Source: Beijerinckiaceae bacterium (GTDB lineage: Bacteria > Pseudomonadota > Alphaproteobacteria > Rhizobiales > Beijerinckiaceae). From it: a stretch of DNA of 64,000 bases. The DNA lies in the NCBI GenBank assembly GCA_947474545.1, contig CANJJI010000002.1:3623-67622 (forward strand), read 5' to 3'. Positions 3,266 through 61,697 of the stretch are shown here, in pieces (position 1 is the stretch's first letter; each line of letters starts with the position of its first letter). The translations under genes were made by a program, and so were the position numbers. The notes under the pieces are model-generated. The model did no database searches. It was not told where the DNA came from and was given only the letters and a program-made list of their open reading frames with translations.

Positions 3266-3976
3266 TTAAAAGCCCAGCAACAAATTGCTCAGACGATCTG
3301 ATGCCGCCAGCTCTTTCGCAGGTCCATCGAAAGTGACACGTCCATTGCCTAACACATAGGCGCGATCAGCAATTTCCAGGGCATGATGAGCTTCCTGTTC
3401 AACGACAAGCACAGAGGCGTTCAATGTCTTGGCAACATTCCCGATTGCCTCATACATCTTGTCGACCATAATCGGCGATAATCCGCCGGAAGGCTCATCC
3501 AGAATGATCAAGCGTGGCGCAGCGATCAACAAAGCTCCAAGTGAAAGCATTTGCCTCTCGCCGCCAGAGAGTGATCCCGCCCGTGAATGACGCCGTTCGT
3601 AGAGAGCGGGAAACAGTTCCTGCACCTGCTTTATGCGGCCTGGAATCTGACTCTGATCCTTCAGCGCAAACCCGCCAAGCGTAAGATTGTCGATCACACT
3701 CAGGCTGCGGAAGGATTCGCCGCCCTGCGGAGAATAACCAAGACCTGCAATCACCTTCGCCGAAGGTGCGCTATGGGTGATATCAGCTCCCGCAAACGAA
3801 ATTGTGCCTGACACGATAGGAAGCACGCCAAAAATTGCGCTCATCAAGGTGGACTTGCCGGCGCCATTGTGCCCGAGCACAGCGACAATTTCCCGTTCGC
3901 CGACAGTAAGATCGACGCCATGTATGACTTTTTTAGCGCCGTATCCGGCCTGCAAATTATTGACTTGCAGCAACAT
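3266..3976 (-). CDS. Branched-chain amino acid-type ABC transporter ATP-binding protein (LivF-like)
   Basis: GHNGAGKS Walker A, LSGGERQM signature, ILDEPS; start moved to MLLQV at 3976. Confidence 0.92.
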   Translation of the reverse strand: MLLQVNNLQAGYGAKKVIHGVDLTVGEREIVAVLGHNGAGKSTLMSAIFGVLPIVSGTISFAGADITHSAPSAKVIAGLGYSPQGGESFRSLSVIDNLTLGGFALKDQSQIPGRIKQVQELFPALYERRHSRAGSLSGGERQMLSLGALLIAAPRLIILDEPSGGLSPIMVDKMYEAIGNVAKTLNASVLVVEQEAHHALEIADRAYVLGNGRVTFDGPAKELAASDRLSNLLLGF

Positions 3977-4736
3977 GACGCTTCCCGAGATAAGCTTCGA
4001 CCATGCTGCGATGGCCACGCACTTCCGCCGGCGTTCCGCTGGCCACCGTCGTTCCTTGCATCATCAAGACGACTTTATCTGATATGGACATGACGACATC
4101 CATATTGTGTTCGATGAGCAGAATAGTCTTCCTCTCTTTAGTGACAAGGTTCTTCATCAATTCGACAAGTTTGCCGAATGTGCTGCGATCAAGGCCCACA
4201 GTCGGTTCGTCCAGCAGGACGATGCGCGGTTCACCGACAAGCGCGCGGGCGATACTGAGAAACCGTTGCTCACCAAAGGACAATGCGCTTGCCTCTTCTT
4301 TCGCACGCGCGAGCAGGCCAACGTCTTCCAGTATCCTTTCCGCGCGTTCGCGCGCAGCCTTCCATTGCGCGTTGACCTTCGCGCCACGCATTATCGCCCA
4401 GAATGGCGCCTCGCCTTTCTGGCGCACGCCGACCATGACATTATCCAGCACAGTCATTTCTTGAAAGACCCGCGGGTCCTGAAACGTACGGGCCATACCC
4501 AGGCGGTAAATATCATGCGGCTCCCTGCCTTCGATCGGTTGCCCGGCAAATGTAACTGTTCCAGAATCAGGTTTGAGAAAGCCGGAAACAATATTGAACG
4601 CCGTAGTCTTGCCGGCGCCATTAGGTCCAATAAGGCTCGTAATCGTATGTTCTTCAACTGTAAAAGAGGCGTTGTCGACCGCAGCCAGCCCCCCGAAGCG
4701 CTTGGAAATGCCGCTGACATCAAGAACGGCGGTCAT
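3957..4736 (-). CDS. LIV-type ABC transporter ATP-binding protein (LivG-like)
   Basis: FGGLAAV, GPNGAGKT, LSFGEQR, LLDEP, IEHNM. Confidence 0.92.
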   Translation of the reverse strand: MTAVLDVSGISKRFGGLAAVDNASFTVEEHTITSLIGPNGAGKTTAFNIVSGFLKPDSGTVTFAGQPIEGREPHDIYRLGMARTFQDPRVFQEMTVLDNVMVGVRQKGEAPFWAIMRGAKVNAQWKAARERAERILEDVGLLARAKEEASALSFGEQRFLSIARALVGEPRIVLLDEPTVGLDRSTFGKLVELMKNLVTKERKTILLIEHNMDVVMSISDKVVLMMQGTTVASGTPAEVRGHRSMVEAYLGKRHVAASQ

Positions 4737-5608
4737 GCGCGCAACCCAACTTTATTGCCAACCAGCCCCTGCGGTCTGAACATCATCAACAAGATCAGCA
4801 GCAGACCATACAATGCCTCCTGAATATGCCCGATATCCCAACCCTGACCACCGATGAACCTGAACAGTTCAGGAAACAGCATCAGCACTGCGGGCCCTAC
4901 AAATGCCCCGAGCAATGAACAATTGCCGCCAACGAACAACATCGCCCATAGCAGAATGATAGTTTGCAGACCATAGCCATCAGCAGAAACAAAGCGGAAG
5001 TAAAATGCGCCCATAGCGCCGCACAATGCGGCAAACCCACCGCCCAGCGCAAAAACGATAATCTTGGTACGCACTACATTGATGCCCAGCGACATAGCCA
5101 CAGACTCGTCATCACGAATGGCATGCAGCGCCGCCTTCATCGGCGATGAAGCAAAACGCCAATGAACAAAAAAGATAAATGCGGTCATGATCGCTATAAA
5201 ACCGAGCATGCCATAGCCACTTTGCACCTGATACGAGCCTATTGAAGGGCGCGGCACTCCGCGAATGCCGAAAGGCCCATTGGTGAGCCATTCCATGTTG
5301 ATGATGAGACTGGTGACAATGAGCGAAAAACCGAACAGGGCCAGAATGAAATAGTCGCCGCCCAGACGGAGGGTCGGCAAGCCTATCAGCACAGCGATAA
5401 AGGCACCCATTGCGAACGCCAGCACCATGGCGGTGAACCAATCCAGCCCAGCGTAAACCGTAAGAATAGCAGTTGTATAGGCGCCTATGCCATAAAATGA
5501 TGCATGTCCGAAACTGAGAATTCCGGCGTGACCAATGTTAAGGTCCAGCGAAACCGTCAGGCACGCATATATCATAACCATTATAAGTAGATGCTGAAGA
5601 TATTCCAC
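4733..5608 (-). CDS. LIV-type ABC transporter permease (LivM-like)
   Basis: LSFGHASFYGIGAY, LRLGGDYF, AIRDDESVAMSLGIN; hydrophobic; 4-nt overlap with livG. Confidence 0.9.
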   Translation of the reverse strand: MEYLQHLLIMVMIYACLTVSLDLNIGHAGILSFGHASFYGIGAYTTAILTVYAGLDWFTAMVLAFAMGAFIAVLIGLPTLRLGGDYFILALFGFSLIVTSLIINMEWLTNGPFGIRGVPRPSIGSYQVQSGYGMLGFIAIMTAFIFFVHWRFASSPMKAALHAIRDDESVAMSLGINVVRTKIIVFALGGGFAALCGAMGAFYFRFVSADGYGLQTIILLWAMLFVGGNCSLLGAFVGPAVLMLFPELFRFIGGQGWDIGHIQEALYGLLLILLMMFRPQGLVGNKVGLRA

Positions 5609-5623
5609 GATCGCGCCCTTTCC

Positions 5624-6502
5624 TTAGACGCGCCGCGTCGAAAGCATATGGCCAAACAGTCCGGCCGGGCGGAATAGGAGGAAGATCAGCAAGGCGCCAA
5701 AGACAACCACATCTTGCCAACGGCCGGATAATTGCCAGAGCGACAGATTTTGCAGTAGGCCAAGCAAAAAAGCCCCTGCAGCCGCCCCGGGTAAATAGCC
5801 CACCCCCCCAACGATGACCGCGACAAGCGACACAAACATCACAGGAAAACCCATTTCCGGCCGAACGCCCAGATCGTAGGCGATCAGAGACACGGCAAAA
5901 CCCGCAAGCAACGACCCTATGGCAAAGATCAACATGTACAGGCGTTCGACATTAACGCCCCGCACGACTGAAAGCTTTGGATTATCCGCCAGCGCCCGGA
6001 TGGCGCGTCCATATTTTGTGCGCGTCAAAAACAGATGAAGGATTGGAAAAACAACAATCACGATCGCAGCGGCTATAATATGCATGATCGTTAAGCTGAT
6101 TTCTCCAATATCGTATAACGGAAGTGGCCCCTGCCTAAGGTACAGAGTATCGGTTGTGAAAATCAAAGCAAATACGGCCTGACAGAGAGTCAGTGCGCCA
6201 ATAGAACCTATAAATAATGCCGCCTCGCTGCTTTTGCGCGCACGTAAAGGGCGGTAAACCAATAAATCTATCAGGACACCAAAAGCTGCCGCAGACGCAA
6301 GCGCCACAATCACCGCAACCGGCATCGGAAGATGCAACAATTTAACGGCGATATAGAGCGCATAACCGCCAGCCGTAAAAACAGCGCCATGCGCCATATG
6401 CAATATGCGCGTGCCATTGTAGATAATAGCGAAACCAACCGCAGTGAGCGCGTAGAGCGCTCCGGATGCCAAACCGTCTATGAACAACTGAAGGAGAAGC
6501 AT
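5624..6502 (-). CDS. LIV-type ABC transporter permease (LivH-like)
   Basis: GLASGALYALTAVGF, HMAHG, GRAIRALADNP, RPAGLFG. Confidence 0.9.
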   Translation of the reverse strand: MLLLQLFIDGLASGALYALTAVGFAIIYNGTRILHMAHGAVFTAGGYALYIAVKLLHLPMPVAVIVALASAAAFGVLIDLLVYRPLRARKSSEAALFIGSIGALTLCQAVFALIFTTDTLYLRQGPLPLYDIGEISLTIMHIIAAAIVIVVFPILHLFLTRTKYGRAIRALADNPKLSVVRGVNVERLYMLIFAIGSLLAGFAVSLIAYDLGVRPEMGFPVMFVSLVAVIVGGVGYLPGAAAGAFLLGLLQNLSLWQLSGRWQDVVVFGALLIFLLFRPAGLFGHMLSTRRV

Positions 6503-20630: not shown

Positions 20631-20706
20631 TGGTGGGCCGGGAGGGACTTGAACCCCCAACCAGACCGTTATGAGCGGCCGGCTCTAACCATTGAGCTAC
20701 CGGCCC
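20631..20706 (-). tRNA. tRNA with CAT anticodon, most likely tRNA-Ile2 (lysidine type)
   Basis: 76-nt cloverleaf GGGCCGG-TA-GCTC...GAGC-C-GGCCG-CTCATAA-CGGTC-...GGGGG-TTCAAGT-CCCTC-CCGGCCC-A-CCA. G1:C72 pair excludes the initiator; Ile2 versus elongator Met is inferred from resemblance to alphaproteobacterial Ile2 genes. Confidence 0.95.
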
Positions 20707-27995: not shown

Positions 27996-28005
27996 TGGGT
28001 GGGCT

Positions 28006-28095
28006 GTCATCCTGGTAAGTCGTCTAACGATTTATCGGGGATCGCTGGAAATAGACTCACAAAGATGCCGGAACGGCTACGCCGTCCGCGATGAT
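28006..28095. repeat. Degenerate REP-doublet element
   Basis: gtcatcctgg...cgatttatcggggatc start matches the copies at 45962, 48529 and 58875; lies between convergent genes. Confidence 0.6.
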
Positions 28096-38991: not shown

Positions 38992-39094
38992 GATATGGTT
39001 TCCCTTGCTTAACTTTTTACGCGTCCCGATACCGGCAATACGCGCAGATCGTGAAAGAGCTTATGAAATGAAAGGTAAAATTTGATATTTCCCT

Positions 39095-39122
39095 TACGGA
39101 AGCGACCTTGAGGCCGCTTCCG
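39095..39122. terminator. Hairpin between the hydrolase stop and the cheY-like gene
   Basis: acggaagcg/cgcttccgt 9-bp stem; coordinates approximate. Confidence 0.4.
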
Positions 39123-39186
39123 TCCCGCCATGGTTAATGTATCCTAACAATTGGCGGCAGGATAACAGCCTGTTTATGAATGAACA

Positions 39187-42212: not shown

Positions 42213-43247
42213 TCAGCCTCCCAGCCGTGAATAGGTGGCCAGCGGATTATCACGCATGATTTTTTTATGCAGCGCCGTGGGTATGCCCTTGGGCATGACA
42301 TCGTCGCCATCAAACTGCCAGTGCGGAAAATCCGATGCGTAAAGCAGGAAATCATCCGACTGGATCTGGTCGATGACTTTCTCGATCACCGACAAATCTT
42401 CCGGCCCGTCCAGCGGCTGCACGGTCATGCGCACATGATCGCGGATAATGTCCCCAGGCGGCCTGTCGATCCAGGGGACTTCACGCCGCACGCCGCGCCA
42501 GAATTTTGACAATCGCCAGATGAAACCAGGCAGCCATGTCACTCCGGATTCAATCAGCACTACTTTCAGGCTGGGAAACTTGACGAACACGCCTTCAGTC
42601 ACAAGGCTTGCGAGTTGCGCCTGAAATCCGAGCGATTGCGCGGAATAATCCTCCACATAATATGTGGTCCAGCCTAGCGACGTCACGGGATGGCGATAGG
42701 ACGAGCCAGCATGTATGCCGATGGGCAGCCCGTGCTTTTCCGCGGCTCGAAAAATCGGCCAGAACTGCCGCTTGCCCAACGGCGCTTCGCCATTGGCGAG
42801 CACCAGCACCTGAACAAACTGGCGATTGGGCGCGAGCCGCTCGATCTCATCCACGCAGGCCTCGATATCCTGCAACGGCAGGATGATCGAGGACGCAAGC
42901 CGCGCGTCCTTCGCCAGCCATTCCTGCGCAATCCAGTCGTTGAGCGCGCGGGTGAAGGCAATCGCCATATCGGTATTGTGAACAAGCTGGACGCCGTAAT
43001 TGCAATTAAGGATCGCGCGCTCCGCGCCCCATTTGTCAAACACCTGCGAGGTCAGGCCAGCAAAATCCAGCCCTGCCTTTTTCAGATCGGGCCGCGCGGT
43101 CAGCGGTGAGTTCGGCGGATAGGAAATGGATTCCAGCGAGGCAATGCCGCGATCGACAACCTGCTCCTGCCAATTGGCGTCCAGCCAGGGCATGAGGACT
43201 TTCGTCCCGGGAACAGCGGGATGAACGTCGCAATCAATAGGCTTCAA
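42213..43247 (-). CDS. Amidohydrolase-2 TIM-barrel protein; candidate partner subunit of a dinuclear oxygenase
   Basis: IDCDVHP, IGIHAG, LIESG, YASDFPHWQFD; TTG start with GGGGAG RBS. Confidence 0.8.
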   Translation of the reverse strand: MKPIDCDVHPAVPGTKVLMPWLDANWQEQVVDRGIASLESISYPPNSPLTARPDLKKAGLDFAGLTSQVFDKWGAERAILNCNYGVQLVHNTDMAIAFTRALNDWIAQEWLAKDARLASSIILPLQDIEACVDEIERLAPNRQFVQVLVLANGEAPLGKRQFWPIFRAAEKHGLPIGIHAGSSYRHPVTSLGWTTYYVEDYSAQSLGFQAQLASLVTEGVFVKFPSLKVVLIESGVTWLPGFIWRLSKFWRGVRREVPWIDRPPGDIIRDHVRMTVQPLDGPEDLSVIEKVIDQIQSDDFLLYASDFPHWQFDGDDVMPKGIPTALHKKIMRDNPLATYSRLGG

Positions 43248-43286
43248 GGTTTCGGCTCCCCGGATGTTTTGTTGCGCGCACCATAA

Positions 43287-43700
43287 TGGAAACGCCCGGC
43301 AATGCCCAAGGCAGAAATGTCGCGGGGAGGTCTCTCAACCCGTGGTTCCCAAGCAGCAGAAATAACCTGCCTGACTGGAGCGCGGGCCTCTGGCCCGCTG
43401 TTGCAAAAGATGTGGAACTGGAGCGCCACGCTCCCTGCGCGAATAGCTCCGCCGTGCGCACGCACGCGAGACATGAGGGCCCCGGGACGCTGGTTCGCCG
43501 TGAATGGGGTAGTAGGGTGCTGGCTTGCCAGCGTCCCGTAGTTCCGGCTTTTTTCGGTTCCTGCCAAACCACTTGCCGCTGCAGTCATAGTGCTGGGCGT
43601 TGGGAATCCAGAAAGGCCCTTGCGTTCCTTTCCATCCTGGCAGGCCGCTCCGGGATGCTTGCTCCCGGTAAGAGCAAGTCGCAGAGGCCGTGCCCCGCCC
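43287..43700 (+). ncRNA. Candidate large structured RNA (unassigned)
   Basis: No credible ORF. Helices 43291-43301/43591-43601, 43309-43314/43367-43372, 43321-43326/43339-43344, 43382-43398, 43420-43434, 43483-43493/43528-43538, 43658-43678; the imperfect pairs I checked are G-U only on the + strand. Confidence 0.4.
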
Positions 43701-43749
43701 GCCAATATGACCGCTCATGATCGGCCCCTCATTGCGCAGGGATGAGCGC

Positions 43750-43778
43750 TTTTAGAACAACATAGGAACATTTGTCAA
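43750..43778 (-). promoter_or_regulatory. Sigma70-like promoter overlapped by an alphaproteobacterial LexA (SOS) box
   Basis: TTGACA (43778-43773), 17-nt spacer, CTAAAA (43755-43750); GAAC-aacatag-GAAC at 43755-43769 matches GTTC-N7-GTTC. Confidence 0.65.
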
Positions 43779-43897
43779 GAAGAATTTTCTACATATTATG
43801 AAATATTTCCTATCAAACGGGAGAATGGCCGGCCCCGCCCGTTGACTTGAACACCTCGCTGGATGAACGTTCGCTCGCAGACTTCAGGGAGGGAAAA

Positions 43898-44920
43898 TTG
43901 GTCAAAATTGCCAACATCATGCACGGCGCAGGCGCCGCGCTCGCCATTTCGCTGATCGCAGCCAATCCGCTCGCCGCCCAATCGGCCGCCTGGGACAATG
44001 TCGTCGCGGAAGCGAAAAAAGAGGGCAAGCTCACCATCTACAATGGCACCAATTATCGCGTGGTGCGCATGGTGGCGGCGGAATTCACCAAAAAATACGG
44101 CATCCGCGTCGATGTGCTGGACGCCCGCACCACCGAGATCCGCGAGCGCATCCGCGTCGAGCAGGCCACAAACCGCACCGTCGCGAGCCTGAGTTTCAGC
44201 GGCTGGACAACCCTGTCCACCCAGCAGGCCGAAGGCGTCTGGCGTAAAGTGGACGCAATTCCCAACGTCGCGAAATTGCAGGATCCCCTTAAATCCAATG
44301 GCATGCTTGTGCCCGCAGTCACTGGCAGTTTCGCCATCGCGATCAACACCAGTCTCGTCAAGCCGGAAGACGAACCCAAAAGCTGGCACGACCTTGCCGA
44401 CCCCAAATGGAAAGGCAAAATCCTCTCCGATGATCCACGCGCGGCCGGCGCAGGCAATGTCTGGTTTGAAGCGACCTACAATGCCTTCGGCCCGGGCTTT
44501 CATGAAAAGATCAACGCACAGGGTCCCGTGTTCAGCCGCGTGTTTCCTGAAAACCAGCGACGGCTGGCGCGTGGCGAATTTGCGCTTTACATTCCCTTCG
44601 CGATTTCCGAAATCGCGGGCCTGCGCGGCCTGCCCGTAAAAGCTATCATCCCCGTGGAAGGCGCGCCCTATGTCCCCTTTGCCTGGGGCATGCTGCACGA
44701 TGCGCCCGCGCCCAATGCAGGCCACCTCTTCATCAACTACAGCCTGGAGGACGAGGCGCAGGCCGTCTTCGCCAGCGAGGGCTTCACTCCCGCCATCCCC
44801 GCCGCCCGCGAAAAAGTACCCGCGGACGTCAAGCCGCTTGTCAACGCCAAACTGCTGGGTACAACCACGGTCGGCAAGCTCGATGAAATGGTGAAGGCCG
44901 CACAGGCTCTGTATAAATAA
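43898..44920 (+). CDS. Orphan ABC substrate-binding protein (Fe3+/polyamine/thiamine SBP-like family)
   Basis: AKKEGKLTIY, PKSWHDLADPKWKGKI, ARGE; TTG start after AGGGAGG RBS. Confidence 0.85.
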   Translation: MVKIANIMHGAGAALAISLIAANPLAAQSAAWDNVVAEAKKEGKLTIYNGTNYRVVRMVAAEFTKKYGIRVDVLDARTTEIRERIRVEQATNRTVASLSFSGWTTLSTQQAEGVWRKVDAIPNVAKLQDPLKSNGMLVPAVTGSFAIAINTSLVKPEDEPKSWHDLADPKWKGKILSDDPRAAGAGNVWFEATYNAFGPGFHEKINAQGPVFSRVFPENQRRLARGEFALYIPFAISEIAGLRGLPVKAIIPVEGAPYVPFAWGMLHDAPAPNAGHLFINYSLEDEAQAVFASEGFTPAIPAAREKVPADVKPLVNAKLLGTTTVGKLDEMVKAAQALYK

Positions 44921-45946: not shown

Positions 45947-45961
45947 GAGCGGTCAAATAAT

Positions 45962-46055
45962 GTCATCCCGGAAAATCGTGCAAGGATTTATCCGGGACCT
46001 CCCGCCGCATCCAACCCAACAATCCCGGCTCTGCGCTTTGCTTGGCCGGGATGAC
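45962..46055. repeat. REP-doublet (REPIN/BIME-like) element
   Basis: gtcatcccggaaaatcg...gatttatccgggac...cttggccgggatgac; terminal inverted repeat gtcatcccgg/ccgggatgac. Confidence 0.8.
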
Positions 46056-52770: not shown

Positions 52771-52889
52771 GCTTTCCTCCCCTGATTTTGATTGGCCGCT
52801 GTAATGTGCAGTCTGTCGTCTGGAATAATGGCATAACCCGGCCAATTGCCGGGCGTCTATAGCACAGAGCGTGCCTCAAGCTGAAAGGT

Positions 52890-52978
52890 GTCGTCCCGGA
52901 CGCCAAAGGCGATCCGGGATCGTAATGTTATTGGCCACTCCCGATACCGGATAATCCCTGCGCGATTTCCAGGATGAC
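52890..52978. repeat. REP-doublet element (reverse orientation)
   Basis: 3' end ccggataatccctgcgcgatttccaggatgac is the reverse complement of the REP core; 5' end gtcgtcccgg. Confidence 0.7.
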
Positions 52979-53113
52979 AAACCCCGCCAAAATCCGCGGC
53001 CCACAGCTTGCGCACAATGCCCCAGCCCGGCTAAAGAGATGCCGGGCGGGCGGCATGATGCCCGATTGAACCGGCACTCCGCCTCGCAAACCATTTCGGG
53101 AGAGAAGCAGCCC

Positions 53114-56543: not shown

Positions 56544-57743
56544 ATGGCTGTTGCACTCTCCGAACGCCTCAATACGCCCATTTCGACAGCAGAGCTCGAA
56601 CGCCGCTGGGCGGCAGTGCGCAAGGGCATGGCCGAGCGCGGCATCGACGTGCTCGTCATGCAGAACAACAATGATTTCATGGGCGGCGCAGTGAAATATT
56701 TCACAGATATGCCGGCCACCAATGGCTATCCGGTGACGCTGATCTTCCCCAAGGACGATGATATGACCATCATCGGTCAGGGCCCGTTCAATCACGACCG
56801 TCCCGTGCCGAAAGAAGGCAATGGCATGCTGCGCGGCGTGAAGCGCCAGCTGGGCGTGCCAAGCTATCACACAGCCCATTACACCGGCGAATATGACGCA
56901 GAGCTCGCCGTGAAGGCGCTTGCGGGGCACAAGGGCGCCAAGATCGGACTGCTGGCCGTGGCCTCGATCCCGCACATGTTCGTCGAATATCTCAAGAAGA
57001 ATGCACCCACCAATGAAGGCTTCGTCAACGCCTCCGACTTCGTCGACGAAATCCGCGCTCTGAAGAGCCCAGAAGAACTCAAGCTGATGCGCGAGACGGC
57101 CAAACTGCAGGATGAACAGATGCAGGCCGCCTTTGCAGCGGTAAAACCCGGCATGACCGATCAGGCCGTGAAGGCAGCAGCCCTGCATTACGGCACGGTG
57201 CGCGGCAGCGAACAGGGCTGGTACATGTGCGCTTCCGGCCCCGTGGGCACAGCGGCTGTCATGGGTCCTCCCCATCAGCAGGCGCGCGTTATCAAGGCGG
57301 GCGACCAGTTCACATTGCTGGCAGAAAACGCCGGCGCCGGCGGCATGTACACCGAACTTGGCCGAACCTGCGTGCTCGGCAAGGCCAGCCAGGAAATGCA
57401 CGACGAATTCGCCTTCGTCATGGAAGCGCGCGCGCACACGCTGAAAATGCTGAAGCCCGGCGCCTCCTGCAAGGACATCTGGGAAAGCCACAACGAATTC
57501 ATGCGCAAGCATGGCAAGCCCGAGGAAACCCGGCTCTATTGCCATTCCCAGGGCTATGACATGGTGGAGCGTCCGCTCGTCCGCTTCGATGAAACCATGC
57601 CGCTGCAAGCCAATATGTGCCTGGCTGTTCACCCGACCTATGTGACCTCGACAACTTATAGCTGGGCCTGCGACAATTTCATTCTTACAGAGACCGGCTG
57701 CGAACGCATTCACGCGTTTCCGGAGAAGATTACGGAACTGTGA
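56544..57743 (+). CDS. M24 (pita-bread) fold protein with non-canonical metal ligands; creatinase/Xaa-Pro peptidase-like
   Basis: ELERRW, IRALKSPEEL, TELGRT, CHSQG, AVHP. Confidence 0.75.
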   Translation: MAVALSERLNTPISTAELERRWAAVRKGMAERGIDVLVMQNNNDFMGGAVKYFTDMPATNGYPVTLIFPKDDDMTIIGQGPFNHDRPVPKEGNGMLRGVKRQLGVPSYHTAHYTGEYDAELAVKALAGHKGAKIGLLAVASIPHMFVEYLKKNAPTNEGFVNASDFVDEIRALKSPEELKLMRETAKLQDEQMQAAFAAVKPGMTDQAVKAAALHYGTVRGSEQGWYMCASGPVGTAAVMGPPHQQARVIKAGDQFTLLAENAGAGGMYTELGRTCVLGKASQEMHDEFAFVMEARAHTLKMLKPGASCKDIWESHNEFMRKHGKPEETRLYCHSQGYDMVERPLVRFDETMPLQANMCLAVHPTYVTSTTYSWACDNFILTETGCERIHAFPEKITEL

Positions 57744-57745
57744 GC

Positions 57746-57783
57746 GCGCAAAACTCCCGGCTGGCTCAACATGCGAGCCGGGA
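57746..57783. terminator. Hairpin after the M24-like gene
   Basis: tcccggct/agccggga stem; coordinates approximate. Confidence 0.35.
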
Positions 57784-57798
57784 TCATATCGAGGCAAC

Positions 57799-58845
57799 AT
57801 GACACGCGCCAAACTCCCCCACACATTTGAAGAATTCACCGAAGGGGCGGCCTATGAATATGGCGCGCACGAAGTCACGCGCGAGGAAATCATCGAATTT
57901 GCCAGCGAGTTCGATCCGCAGCCCTTTCATCTCGACGACGAAGCTGGAAAGAATTCTCTGCTTGGCGGGCTAGCCGCATCCGGGTGGCATACGGCAGGGA
58001 TTGCGATGCGTATGCATGCAGACAATCTTCTCCGCAGCGATATTTTTATGGGCTCTCCGGGCATAGCAGAACTGAACTGGATGAAAGCCGTATATCCCGG
58101 CGATATTCTGAGCGTCCAGGCACTGGCAAAATCGGTCAGGGTTTCACAATCCCGCCCCGGCCTCGGCATTATCGAATTTGAATTCACGCTGCTCAACCAG
58201 CATGGCGAACGCAAAATGGTCAATCGCGGCAGCACATTTGTCGCGACGAAGGACATGGATCGCACAACGCCTTTGACTGCCGTTGTTCCGCCGCCATCCG
58301 ATAACAGCCAACCCGCGCCGATGGGCCGCAACGATCCCGCAGCCTTGCCGGACAATCACTACCTGTTATCAGGTTATTGGGATGACGTGCCGCTCGGCGA
58401 TACCTGTGACATGGGCACACACACATTCGAATCGGCTGATATCATCCGCTATGCCCGCAAATATGATCCGCAGCGTTTTCACATCGACGAAGCCGCCGCA
58501 AAGGCTGGCCCTTTCGGCGCGTTGACAGCATCGGGCTGGCATACGGCGGCAGGCGGCATGCGCAGGCTTGTGCTGTCGCGCAAGCCTTATTTTGATGAAG
58601 CACGCAAGCGTGGCCTACCTCTCGCGGACAAGGGGCCGTCACCGGGATTTCGGGATCTCAAATGGACCAAGCCTGTTTATGCCGGCGACACATTGCGCTT
58701 CACTTCAACGCCTGTGAACAAGCGAAAGACATCCCGCGAAGGCTGGGGCATTCTGTTTACGCGTGTTGAAGGACAAAATCAGCGCGGCGAAAAACCGTTT
58801 GAATATGTCAGCGCGAGTTTTTGGCCTTTGCGGAAAAAGAACTAA
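57799..58845 (+). CDS. Tandem MaoC (double hot-dog) dehydratase-family protein
   Basis: Two repeats: FDPQPFHLD..ASGWHT and YDPQRFHID..ASGWHT. Confidence 0.88.
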   Translation: MTRAKLPHTFEEFTEGAAYEYGAHEVTREEIIEFASEFDPQPFHLDDEAGKNSLLGGLAASGWHTAGIAMRMHADNLLRSDIFMGSPGIAELNWMKAVYPGDILSVQALAKSVRVSQSRPGLGIIEFEFTLLNQHGERKMVNRGSTFVATKDMDRTTPLTAVVPPPSDNSQPAPMGRNDPAALPDNHYLLSGYWDDVPLGDTCDMGTHTFESADIIRYARKYDPQRFHIDEAAAKAGPFGALTASGWHTAAGGMRRLVLSRKPYFDEARKRGLPLADKGPSPGFRDLKWTKPVYAGDTLRFTSTPVNKRKTSREGWGILFTRVEGQNQRGEKPFEYVSASFWPLRKKN

Positions 58846-58874
58846 CCGAACAAGTCATCTCATGTGATTGTGGT

Positions 58875-58966
58875 GTCATCCCGAAAATGCGGAAGCATTT
58901 ATCCGGGATCGTGCGCCGCAAATCATAAAACGATCCCGGCTCTGCGCGTCGCTTGGCCGGGGTGAC
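58875..58966. repeat. REP-doublet element
   Basis: gtcatcccgaaaatgc...gcatttatccgggatc...gatcccggctctgcg...cttggccggggtgac; between convergent genes. Confidence 0.8.
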
Positions 58967-59012
58967 ATCAGCTGACTTGGTGCGACTGTGCCAAATCAGG
59001 TGCATCACGCCC

Positions 59013-60815
59013 CTACCCCTCGAATTGCTTTATCTCCTGCATGAACAGCCGCGAAAACTCCTGCAACTTCGCGGCCCCGACGCCATGCACGTCCGCAAAT
59101 GCGGCGCGTGTGCGCGGTGCTTTGGCGGCCATATCAATCAAGGTGCGATCAGAAAATATCACGTAGGCCGGCACGTTTCGCTCGCTCGCCAGGGAGCGGC
59201 GCAGGTTTTTCAATCGCGCCAGCAAGGCCTCTTGCTGTGGATCCATAATGTCATCAGATGCGGCAGGAGCCACGCGATCACGCCGCGATTTAGAACCGAT
59301 CATATCGCGGCGATAACGGAATTCCGCCTCGCCGTTCATCAAGGCGCGGCCTTTGTCTGCGATAGATAATCCGCCAAATCCGCCGGAATCCAGATGCAGA
59401 AATCCCGCGCCTACCATTTGCCGGATCAAGGATTGCCATTCCGTGCGCGGCCTGCCTGTGCCCGCGGCAAAGGAAGGCAATTCATCGTGCCGCAACGCGA
59501 CGGCCCGGTCATTGGCCTTGCCGGTGAGAATATCAACAATATGCATCGCCCCAAAACGTTCATCTGTCTGCCGCACCGCCTCGCAGATGCGCTTTGCCTC
59601 CGTGCTGCCGTCAACAGTCGCCACCGGATTGAGGCAGACATCACAATTGCCGCAGGGCTCGGAGCTTTCACCGAAATAGGCCAGCAAAGACATGCGGCGG
59701 CAAGCCGGCGCTTCGCAAAACGCAACGAGCGCATCCAGCCGTTTGTGTTCGCGGCGTTTGTGCTCATCACTGGCGTCGCTCTCATCGATGAATCCGCGGC
59801 GCATGCGAATATCGCCAAAGCCAAACACCATATGCGCGGCAGCAGACCCGCCATCACGGCCCGCGCGGCCGATCTCCTGATAATAGGCGTCGAGAGACGA
59901 CGGCAGATCGGCATGAAACACGAAGCGCACATCAGGCTTGTCGATGCCCATGCCAAAGGCAATCGTCGCGCAGACGATCACGCCTTTCTCTGCCATGAAC
60001 ATTTCCTGCGTCTGGGCGCGGCGCTCGGGCGATAACCCCGCATGATAGGGAACCGCTCTGTACTTCAGCTTGCACAGCAGCTCCGCATATTCCTCCGTGC
60101 TCTTGCGCGAGAGCGAATAGACAATGCCGCTCTGTCCGCGATGGCCCGCCAGAAAAGCTTCCAGTTGTTTTCCGGTGCTTTTCTTCGGCTCTACCGTAAG
60201 GCTGATGTTGGGCCTGTCAAATCCGGAGACATAGACATCGGCCTTACCGCCAAACAATTTCGCCACGATATCCGCACGCGCAGCGTGGTCCGCCGTCGCG
60301 GTGAATGCGCCGATGGGCACACCGGGAAAAGCGTCGCGCAACCCATGCAGCATCTCGTATTCCGGCCGGAAAGATGCGCCCCATTGGGAAATGCAATGGG
60401 CTTCGTCCACCGCGAACAAACGCACGTCCAGCCTTTGCAGCGCGATGATCATGCGCTCGGTCATCAGCCGCTCCGGCGCCAGATAGAGGATGCGCACCTC
60501 GCCCGCCGCAACGCGCCGCCAGATGTCCACATTGGCTTCGCGCGAGGCTGCCGAATTAATGGTTTCTGCCGCAACGCCAGCCAGTTTCAGCGCCGCCACC
60601 TGATCCTGCATCAGCGCTACAAGCGGCGACACGACAATCGCAAGACCGCCCTTCACCAGCGCGGGAACCTGATAGCACAGCGATTTGCCCGAGCCTGTCG
60701 GCATCACCGCCAGCACATGCCTGTCGCCAATCAGACAATCGACAATGCCTTCCTGCCCCGGACGAAAACTGTCGAAGCCGAATGTGTCGCGCAGGACGTC
60801 TGTTTTGGAGAGCAT
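59013..60815 (-). CDS. recQ: ATP-dependent DNA helicase RecQ
   Basis: MPTGSGKSLCYQ, VDEAHCISQWG, ATIAFGMGIDKPDVR, YYQEIGRAGRDG, RQC Cys cluster, HRDC (VPAYVIFSDRTL). Confidence 0.97.
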   Translation of the reverse strand: MLSKTDVLRDTFGFDSFRPGQEGIVDCLIGDRHVLAVMPTGSGKSLCYQVPALVKGGLAIVVSPLVALMQDQVAALKLAGVAAETINSAASREANVDIWRRVAAGEVRILYLAPERLMTERMIIALQRLDVRLFAVDEAHCISQWGASFRPEYEMLHGLRDAFPGVPIGAFTATADHAARADIVAKLFGGKADVYVSGFDRPNISLTVEPKKSTGKQLEAFLAGHRGQSGIVYSLSRKSTEEYAELLCKLKYRAVPYHAGLSPERRAQTQEMFMAEKGVIVCATIAFGMGIDKPDVRFVFHADLPSSLDAYYQEIGRAGRDGGSAAAHMVFGFGDIRMRRGFIDESDASDEHKRREHKRLDALVAFCEAPACRRMSLLAYFGESSEPCGNCDVCLNPVATVDGSTEAKRICEAVRQTDERFGAMHIVDILTGKANDRAVALRHDELPSFAAGTGRPRTEWQSLIRQMVGAGFLHLDSGGFGGLSIADKGRALMNGEAEFRYRRDMIGSKSRRDRVAPAASDDIMDPQQEALLARLKNLRRSLASERNVPAYVIFSDRTLIDMAAKAPRTRAAFADVHGVGAAKLQEFSRLFMQEIKQFEG

Positions 60816-60821
60816 GCCGAT

Positions 60822-61697
60822 TTATGCGCCCGCGACCCGCTTCATGATCGGCCCCAGCTTTTTCACAAGTTCGGGATCACGCACGGACGGCGCTGTCATC
60901 ACGGCGACATCGAGCGCGCAGTCTGATCCGATCGGGCAGGCTTCGTGCTCAGCGGGGAACTCGCGCAGCACATGCGCCACAACTTGTGCTGCCTTTTGCG
61001 CATTGCTGTGCATGATCGCGATGACAGAGGCGACATCGACATTGTCATGCAGCGGATGCCAGCAATCAAAATCCGTCACCATGGCGATGGTCGCGTAGGA
61101 TATTTCCGCCTCGCGCGCGAGCTTGGCCTCCGGCATCGCCGTCATGCCGATCACATCATAGCCAAGGGCTTTGTACGTCGTCGATTCGGCCAGCGAGGAA
61201 AACTGCGGTCCTTCCATGCACAGATATGTGCCGCCGCGTTTCATGGTCACCTTCTCGGCCCGGCCCGCCGCCTCGATCCGGTCTGCAAGACGCGGCGAAA
61301 CCGGATGCGCCATGGAGACATGCGCGACACAACCTTTCCCGAAAAAGCTCGCCGGGCGCAGATAGGTGCGGTCCACGAACTGATCTACCAGCACAAACAT
61401 GCCCGGCGGCAGGTCTTCGCGAAACGATCCGCAGGCCGAAACGGATATAATGTCCGTCACACCTGCATTTTTCAGCGCCCATATATTGGCGCGGTAATTG
61501 ATATCCGACGGCGAATAGATATGGCCTCTGCCATGGCGAGGCAGAAACACCGCCTGCGTCTTGCCGATACGGCCAAAGCGCAGGGAATCGGAGGGCTCAC
61601 CATAGGGCGTATCCACTTTTTCTTCGCGCAGGTCTTCCAGCCCCGGCAGGTCATAAACGCCGGAACCGCCGACAATGCCCACAATCGCCTTCGTCAT
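60822..61697 (-). CDS. mtnP: S-methyl-5'-thioadenosine phosphorylase
   Basis: GIVGGSG, FLPRHG, INYRANI, MEGPQFS, IGMT..PEAKLARE, VTDFDCW; start moved to MTKAI. Confidence 0.95.
   Translation of the reverse strand: MTKAIVGIVGGSGVYDLPGLEDLREEKVDTPYGEPSDSLRFGRIGKTQAVFLPRHGRGHIYSPSDINYRANIWALKNAGVTDIISVSACGSFREDLPPGMFVLVDQFVDRTYLRPASFFGKGCVAHVSMAHPVSPRLADRIEAAGRAEKVTMKRGGTYLCMEGPQFSSLAESTTYKALGYDVIGMTAMPEAKLAREAEISYATIAMVTDFDCWHPLHDNVDVASVIAIMHSNAQKAAQVVAHVLREFPAEHEACPIGSDCALDVAVMTAPSVRDPELVKKLGPIMKRVAGA

Follow-up and report, generated by a model that had tools for sequence, protein, structure and literature searches.

The divergent genes and the insertion between them

A window of 64,000 nucleotides of Beijerinckiaceae DNA (the term denotes the whole stretch analysed here) contains a 650-nt gap at positions 43248-43897, which separates divergent amidohydrolase and solute-binding-protein (SBP) genes. 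This gap probably harbours a member of a family of structured RNA elements, encoded on the minus strand and provided with a promoter of its own. The Amidohydro_2 gene (42213-43247, minus strand) starts with TTG behind a GGAG ribosome-binding site and is followed in its operon by a Rieske gene. On the other side, the SBP_bac_8 gene reads on the plus strand from its real start, a TTG at 43898, and corresponds to a 340-aa gene call in the source contig. The annotation of this 68-kb metagenome contig (ENA ERZ27277814) contains zero genes within the gap, and the G+C content of the gap is 62-63%, compared with 56% for the genome.

Relatives of the amidohydrolase are found at 96, 91, 87, 85, 85 and 82% identity. 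L083, a contig of the 96% lineage, has 93% DNA identity with the window up to position 43327 and then continues with unrelated tandem repeats to its end, while alignment to L088 and L089, which represent the other side of the gap in this lineage, resumes only from 43836. Four relatives with an identical divergent layout have intergenic gaps of 222, 231, 248 and 191 nt, as against 650 nt here. Common to the window and those relatives is a block at 43269-43325, containing a minus-strand promoter and the motif GAA(A/T)TGTCGCG. Since the sister lineage aligns only outside 43328-43835 and the gaps in the relatives are short, this 508-bp stretch between the two divergent promoters is specific to the window lineage.

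The promoter of the amidohydrolase operon (TTGGGC-N18-TATGGT, 43280-43309, minus strand) lies outside the insertion. Its hexamers are conserved, with a variable spacer, in L001, L084, L086 and L083, all of which possess the promoter and lack the insert. The possibility that the amidohydrolase gene has a long 5' leader or a riboswitch here was also considered and dismissed, because the gene's own conserved promoter is located downstream of the insert. The native SBP promoter is marked by a -35-like TTGACT (43841-43846, plus strand), and this TTGAC(T/A) box is conserved in L088/L089, L001, L086, L091 and L093. In addition, the inserted DNA contains a sigma-70-like sequence, TTGTCA-N16-TATTAT (43772-43799, plus strand, 10/12 matches), which reads towards the SBP gene. 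It is the sole site accepted by a promoter scan of 43100-44000, and its -35 overlaps the -35 of the element on the opposite strand.

The motif GAAATGTCGCG (43314-43324), placed directly before the insertion point, is the window version of GAA(A/T)TGTCGCG. This motif lies between the divergent promoters, is kept in L001, L083, L086, L091 and L093, and may serve as the operator of a local regulator; it is parted from the SBP promoter by the insertion. At the equivalent spot of the 96% lineage (L083 1-489, L088 1-160, L089 1-210), tandem repeats of about 250 nt with CCCCTCCCC...GGGGAGGGG hairpins are present. They are unrelated to the window insert, and the contigs break inside the repeat. The gap between the amidohydrolase and SBP promoters is an insertion hot spot.

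A dispersed element family with a common fold

The original prediction had described a perfect 11-bp stem at 43483-43493/43528-43538, which indeed exists and forms the core of a longer hairpin (P10, see below). An exact search for this stem with a free loop, CGGGACGCTGG-N26-42-CCAGCGTCCCG, led to the family and returned 23 loci, seven of them on separate contigs of one metagenome-assembled genome (MAG), ErkenSummer_bin-4723. This MAG is an 85% relative and also the source of L001. The seven Erken copies, about 335 nt each, align with 43438-43780 of the window over about 340 nt; a blastn comparison of the L155 copy with the window copy gives 73% identity over 300 nt. The flanks of the seven copies are mutually unrelated, and the copies thus occupy unrelated loci, so that ErkenSummer_bin-4723 carries a dispersed repeat in at least seven copies within one genome. 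According to the family alignment and to a covariance model (R1) built from all eight copies, including the one in the window, the core of the window copy spans 43438-43780 on the minus strand and comprises a promoter and a predicted transcribed body of about 300 nt.

Homology within the family starts exactly at a TTGAC box, which is followed by a -10 sequence about 17 nt further on. In the window copy, the -35 is TTGACA (43773-43778), of which TTGAC is invariant in 8/8 copies, and the -10 is CTAAAA (43750-43755), separated by 17 nt and aligned with (C/T)TATAT in 7/7 Erken copies. The earlier claim that TTGACA-N17-CTAAAA points into the region therefore holds for a position conserved in all eight copies. 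Because the homology begins at the TTGAC box, this minus-strand sequence is best read as the putative promoter of the element itself, although it falls short of the filter of the promoter scan. Each copy would then be transcribed from TTGACA-N17-CTATAT or, in the window copy, from the CTAAAA -10, with a start predicted near 43743.

RNAalifold assigns to the minus strand of the eight copies a consensus of 89 pairs in 11 helices with -109 kcal/mol, compared with 70 pairs and -77 kcal/mol for the opposite strand. Compensatory changes occur in 23 of the 89 pairs, as against 11.4±2.2 in shuffles of the MAFFT alignment, and 92.9% of the cells are paired (87.3±0.6 in shuffles); in neither case do any of 500 shuffles reach the observed value. 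When the partners are slid by 1-3 columns, only 35-43% of the cells remain paired and 3-8 pairs are changed on both sides. Read on the minus strand, the family contains 96 G·U cells and 16 A·C cells, and this excess together with the better consensus energy places the fold on the minus strand. The P7 hairpin carries an invariant GCAA tetraloop of the GNRA type on a stem whose pairs swap between UA, AU and CG, while the P9 stem differs by copy (ACCGCC/GGCGTT, GGGCC/GGTTC, GAGCC/GGCTC, GAACC/GGTTC).

The strand is the point on which the original prediction has to be revised. It had favoured a plus-strand non-coding RNA of about 450 nt, starting after CATAAT (43282-43287) and closed over about 300 nt by the pair 43291-43301/43591-43601. 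That pair is present, with ten Watson-Crick pairs and one G·T, as is a second long-range pair, 43522-43530/43638-43646, with eight and one. In both, the imperfect position is valid as G-U only on the plus strand, as had been noted, and a weak hairpin followed by TTTT is found at 43727-43753. Neither pair belongs to the conserved fold, however: the first lies outside the family fold, 43637-43647 pairs with 43555-43567 instead, and across the family the G·U count speaks 96 to 16 for the minus strand. The proposed closing helix would join one arm in the conserved spacer of the amidohydrolase promoter, outside the insert, to another arm within it. CATAAT, although present, is not supported as a start signal; it overlaps ACCATA (43280-43285), the reverse complement of the amidohydrolase -10, and is likewise outside the insert. 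Both CATAAT and the 5' arm occur in relatives that lack the 3' arm, and the promoter scan accepts no plus-strand site in that place. The T-run 43551-43556 was also rejected as a plus-strand terminator; it corresponds to an A-rich linker that is conserved on the RNA strand. Given in addition that the plus strand folds no better than its shuffles, an RNA of this kind is scarcely credible.

Folding of the window sequence by itself gives a similar division between the strands. Against dinucleotide shuffles, the minus strand reaches z scores of -2.5 (43250-43790) and -3.4 (43328-43750), whereas the plus strand remains between -0.8 and -1.0, and at -0.8 51 of 300 shuffles are equally good. The comparison with shuffled controls that had been proposed as a test thus comes out in favour of the minus strand and against the plus strand. 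Among 46 control segments of the window (mean z -0.49, sd 1.22), one lies at or below -3.4, and a perfect inverted repeat of at least 11 nt appears in 6.4% of dinucleotide shuffles. These rates, the fold z scores and the expected frequency of the LexA-type box (see below) mean that, apart from the homologous copies, most of the features first described do not exceed chance. The structured non-coding status of the region becomes apparent only through comparison with the seven homologous copies.

The window copy matches R1, of which it is itself a constituent, with 236.7 bits over 335/335 positions (E ~1e-65), compared with 315-366 bits for the Erken copies. Of the 88 consensus pairs it forms 70, including 16 in which both sides differ from the Erken majority, and its changed pairs are still canonical in 23 of 41 cases, as against 14.9±2.7 expected (P = 0.0016), both counts being taken from a model-based alignment that leans towards structure. 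On the minus strand, P1 (43740-43731/43701-43692) retains 5/9 pairs and encloses P2 (43726-43722/43713-43709), a helix of 5 bp that is paired in 35/35 cells of the other copies. P3, the closing helix, joins 43691-43687 to 43452-43448. P4 (43648-43686) has 15/16 pairs, seven of which are changed on both sides relative to the Erken majority and still paired. Its tip is one of the two overlapping hairpins proposed earlier, 43658-43678; the other, 43650-43668, exists as well and lies outside the family fold. P5 and P6 (43647-43637/43567-43555) close the domain 43555-43647, P5 being intact and P6 having 7/7 pairs. This domain contains P7 (43633-43610, 7/8 pairs, with the GCAA tetraloop), P8, and P9 (43599-43580), which is lost in the window copy with 2/8 pairs. 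P10 (43477-43545, 17/21 pairs) is a long hairpin with a C/U-rich terminal loop, whose 11-bp core is invariant in part because the search pattern required it, and P11 (43465-43462/43457-43454) is intact. P2, P4, P5, P6, P7, P10 and P11 are thus intact in the window copy.

The loss of P9 and of half of P1 and a score 80-130 bits below those of the Erken copies would also suit a decaying, non-functional repeat at the DNA level, of the REP (repetitive extragenic palindromic) or MITE (miniature inverted-repeat transposable element) type, with the RNA fold as a by-product. Such a repeat would be in keeping with the unrelated repeats at the identical intergenic spot in the sister lineage, with the presence of a separate REP-like family in the window and with the single copy of the element in its 64 kb. 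It would not be expected to show 23 compensatory pairs, 16 pairs maintained by changes on both sides in the window copy itself, or a 96:16 G·U asymmetry, which is foreign to palindromes of double-stranded DNA. A GNRA-capped hairpin within a multi-branch fold differs from simple palindromes, the promoter has a fixed position in all copies, and terminal inverted repeats are lacking. End-alignment scores for such repeats equal the shuffled null in 8/8 copies, and the flanks share no duplication, as far as this test allows with boundaries known within a few nt; a MITE of the terminal-inverted-repeat type was ruled out on these grounds. A DNA-level repeat is therefore considered improbable.

None of the searches for a protein gave a result that would point to a gene. 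Pfam, NCBIfam and PHROGs on the six frames of the region yielded nothing credible, codon log-odds are negative in 6/6 frames and belong to the lowest 1% of the window, and codon-position G+C is flat across the region, in agreement with the earlier statement that no protein family is matched here. Translations of the region had no match among 5.8 billion proteins, and a full HMMER scan against 1.8 billion representatives gave only spurious, summed weak hits to a tandem-repeat protein. Degenerate back-translated scans of two frames in genome, metagenome and viral collections, as well as tblastn of open reading frames (ORFs) from neighbouring loci against the region, returned no match. The proposed check for a decayed protein gene, made with these neighbouring ORFs and with the family libraries, thus uncovered no gene, and the idea that a regulator gene has decayed between the two operons was rejected.

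The best case for an orphan or decayed gene is a minus-strand ORF of 127 aa (43718-43335). It has GAGGGG as its ribosome-binding site, and its start lies 36 nt past the LexA-type box, a distance usual for SOS promoters and comparable to the 30-46 nt seen in alphaproteobacterial loci. Its codon-position GC of 0.60/0.66/0.63 departs from the ~0.62/0.43/0.70 of real genes, its codon log-odds are negative, and homologues are absent from the genome, metagenome and viral scans and from the family libraries. Genes behind similar promoters have no match in the window, and indels among the family copies break every frame. A gene at this position is accordingly very unlikely.

The element does not correspond to a described RNA either. 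In the window, Rfam 15 gives a gathering-score match only for a tRNA located elsewhere, with chance hits of E >= 0.7 in the region; in the Erken copies there is none at E <= 1 over 54 kb, and a search with one copy at E <= 10 gave only chance hits. The families covered include RNase P, tmRNA, 6S, SRP, riboswitches, HEARO and the group II intron. ARAGORN found no tRNA or tmRNA. The earlier description of a large structured RNA without an Rfam match is consistent with the family fold, and the check it proposed against Rfam identified no family even at permissive thresholds. Judged by Rfam 15 and by the searches made here, the element would represent a new RNA family. No further copies were recovered by an R1 scan of about 160 other loci, by a conserved-linker pattern in viral contigs, or by blastn of the window copy and one Erken copy against plasmids and phages.

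Several observations weigh against a functional family of structured RNAs as the explanation for this insertion. The family is known from eight copies in two genomes, and the search pattern, which demanded the 11-bp stem, makes them a biased sample. The eight sequences that gave the fold also served for counting the 23 compensatory pairs and the other values, and several of the copies are closely related. Of all copies, that in the window is the most eroded and may be decaying, with P9 lost, P1 half lost and a -10 (CTAAAA) weaker than in the other copies. The inserted DNA exceeds the conserved core by 165 bp, and no target duplication is seen at the ends of the insert. Of this surplus, the 110 nt past the core (43328-43437, minus strand) form GC-rich hairpins outside the family homology, and matched neither the Erken copies nor any other sequence that was searched. 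A convincing intrinsic terminator after the fold was not detected, and the L148 copy points at the 3' end of a gene running towards it, a misfit for a leader. As for the LexA-type box, the bare GAAC-N7-GAAC occurs once in the 64-kb window with 1.46 occurrences expected, and GTTC-N7-GTTC is missing from 7/7 Erken copies, whose spacers are unrelated.

A LexA-type box in the promoter of the window copy

The 17-nt promoter spacer of the window copy includes the direct repeat GTTC-N7-GTTC (43755-43769, minus strand), which is the consensus of the alphaproteobacterial LexA box (PMC3091678, PMC12700426). This box had been noted in the original prediction as GAAC-N7-GAAC and is present as described, but it is a feature of the window copy only. 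When species-representative genomes were searched for GAAC-N7-GAACATTTGTCAAG, 50 hits were obtained, and 46 of these are from Alphaproteobacteria. On the other strand the hits read CTTGACAAATGTTC-N7-GTTC followed by T/A-rich sequence, and in many of the loci a start codon lies 30-46 nt downstream of the box motif. The genes behind the motif include those for HhH-GPD repair proteins, AAA_30/PIF1-like helicases and an uncharacterised 190-230-aa MDW/MDF family. In the 25-nt block CTTGACAAATGTTC-N7-GTTC, the window is identical to L115 at 25/25 positions. Relative to the SOS-type loci, only the promoter aligns with the window. Moreover, of the 18 bases that match SOS promoters, part (CTTGACAAAT) is what the element family normally has around its -35, so that only the 8 bases of the box are extra.

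The window site thus resembles real SOS promoters to judge from its sequence. As in alphaproteobacterial SOS promoters (PMC3091678, PMC12700426), GTTC-N7-GTTC is located between the -35 and the -10; unlike in these promoters, the -10 is CTAAAA instead of a T-rich CTwTTT, and no repair gene lies downstream. Binding of LexA to the window copy is conceivable, but on balance doubtful. If it occurred, it would make the window copy inducible by DNA damage, and such control is possible, at most, as a trait of this copy alone. The insertion has placed a new putative promoter, possibly a DNA-damage-responsive one, upstream of an aromatic-compound-type operon.

The original prediction had connected the box with a type I toxin-antitoxin locus or a convergent sense/antisense pair under DNA-damage control, similar to tisB/istR or dinQ/agrB. 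The window locus does share with tisB/istR-1 and dinQ/agrB of E. coli a LexA-type operator beside a non-coding structured region, in this case within a promoter spacer, and a second promoter-like site is present on the other strand. This second site points away from the region, and there is no convergent promoter. Unlike in tisB and dinQ, no toxin ORF is present: no small hydrophobic ORF was found, the best 15-residue Kyte-Doolittle mean is 1.5 in an ORF that lacks a ribosome-binding site, and no frame is conserved or coding-like. The operator is of the alphaproteobacterial direct-repeat type and is missing from the seven other copies. Hardly any weight can therefore be given to a toxin-antitoxin or convergent arrangement.

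The SOS-type loci contain two further items that merit description in their own right. The MDW/MDF family, with an MDW/MDF-(E/D)-R-(A/V)-I-E signature and 190-230 aa, is encoded in L115 (1854-2540, minus strand), L100, L102, L110, L113 and about 15 other loci. Its genes start 30-46 nt behind CTTGACAAATGTTC-N7-GTTC, are multi-copy in Neomegalonema MAGs and match neither Pfam nor NCBIfam, and the family is likely an undescribed SOS gene. The possibility that the window region is a remnant of such a gene was rejected; tblastn of proteins behind similar SOS promoters against the window gave no match. The second item is an element of about 215 nt present in four copies (L109, L111, L123, L134) in the Stellaceae MAG DASZLY01, consisting of a LexA-box promoter and about 190 nt of conserved non-coding sequence. 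These copies have unrelated flanks and no Rfam match; the element may be a multi-copy RNA driven by the SOS response, or else a mobile element.

Related systems and possible modes of action

Many-helix bacterial RNAs of about 300 nt are rare, and several of them proved to be ribozymes or guide RNAs. The HEARO RNA (Rfam RF02033), for example, was later recognised as the omega-RNA of IscB. HEARO and other large multi-copy non-coding RNAs resemble the element in their length of about 300 nt, their many helices supported by covariation, their dispersed occurrence and the absence of an obvious link to flanking genes. In contrast to HEARO, the element matches no Rfam model, its 8-kb loci in the Erken MAG contain no nuclease or transposase gene, and its predicted transcription start is internal, behind its own conserved promoter.

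MITEs, the Correia elements of Neisseria and ERIC sequences are likewise non-coding, dispersed, intergenic and promoter-bringing, and give rise to folded RNA (PMC10969869, PMC3184786). The element differs from these by lacking terminal inverted repeats and a recognisable target duplication, by being 2-3 times longer, and by a multi-branch fold with compensatory changes and a G·U bias in place of a single palindrome. A third comparison concerns two groups of multi-copy ('sibling') regulatory RNAs from Alphaproteobacteria, AbcR1/2 (PMC5461406) and the cuckoo/CcsR RNAs (PMC4615179), which also form paralogous copies with own promoters and C/U-rich loops. These RNAs have about 50-120 nt per unit and intrinsic terminators (PMC5461406, PMC4615179), whereas the element has about 300 nt, no terminator that could be found and no Rfam match.

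The surroundings of the copies bear on their mode of action. Six of the eight (the window copy, L153, L151, L147, L155 and L163) precede a same-strand gene by 80-200 nt, and one has an unclear context; counted as 6 of 7, this bias has a one-sided p of ~0.06. From their N-termini, we take the downstream genes to encode a topoisomerase IV/gyrase A-like protein (L153), a major facilitator superfamily transporter (L151), a metallopeptidase-like protein (L147) and a Rieske oxygenase (L155). No protein family is common to the neighbourhoods, as judged from the 8-kb loci of the seven Erken copies and 11 kb around the window copy. The L163 copy sits within 2.8 kb that are absent from the window, in a region syntenic with 57396-61290. 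This locus thus offers no clean empty site by which to define the ends of the element.

For a family of structured RNAs, the following course of events is proposed. A diverged copy of the element would have arrived in the window lineage as part of the 508-bp insertion (43328-43835) between the two divergent promoters, which are 0.5 kb apart in this genome as a result, an example of how such an element can rewire a locus. Acting in cis, the copy would supply a portable promoter and a structured 5' leader, from which transcription continues into the gene downstream, in this case the amidohydrolase/Rieske operon. The lack of an intrinsic terminator after the fold and the position of six of eight copies upstream of a same-strand gene weakly favour such a leader, and we tentatively regard it as the most likely action. 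A regulatory RNA acting in trans through C/U-rich loops is somewhat less likely; such loops, for example CAUCCCUAUUCC of P10, could base-pair with ribosome-binding sites. It is unlikely, finally, that the RNA promotes the spread of the element itself or serves a protein encoded elsewhere.

A more far-reaching proposal, which we hold to be similarly unlikely, is that of a new class of large RNAs. The element would then be a self-promoted 11-helix gene of about 300 nt that multiplies without terminal repeats or a linked protein, and its fold would be required for its propagation, whether as ribozyme or as guide or template of an enzyme encoded elsewhere, or else for a complex function in trans. 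P9, which is hypervariable and always paired, might act as a specificity determinant, and the copy in the window would be a variant that has come under the control of LexA. The candidate is unusual in combining covariation support, a conserved promoter of its own and several copies with the lack of an Rfam match, of terminal repeats and of a linked protein, and the covariance model R1 is now usable on full databases.

Some further features of the window and the related loci were recorded. A tRNA gene at 20634-20706 (minus strand) is the only gathering-score Rfam match in the window. The segment 38800-39222 (minus strand) has the lowest fold z among the control segments, -4.7. It covers the intergenic stretch 38992-39186, which separates a CheY-like gene from an alpha/beta-hydrolase gene, and contains no Rfam hit at gathering score. 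The REP-like family, a palindromic intergenic sequence GGTCATCCCGGAAAATCGC...GCGATTTATCCGGGAC separate from the RNA element, forms an inverted pair at 48529-48564/48595-48631 and recurs at 45961-45997, 58874-58918, 28004-28094 and 52888-52979. Further members of this family occur in L083/L088/L089 of the sister MAG and in L155 and L163 of the Erken MAG. In L163, the extra 2.8 kb (3318-6199, corresponding to 57740-57814 of the window) consist of the copy of the RNA element, a gene of 334 aa and a REP-like element, flanked by sequence syntenic with the window that includes a RecQ-like gene with 74% DNA identity.

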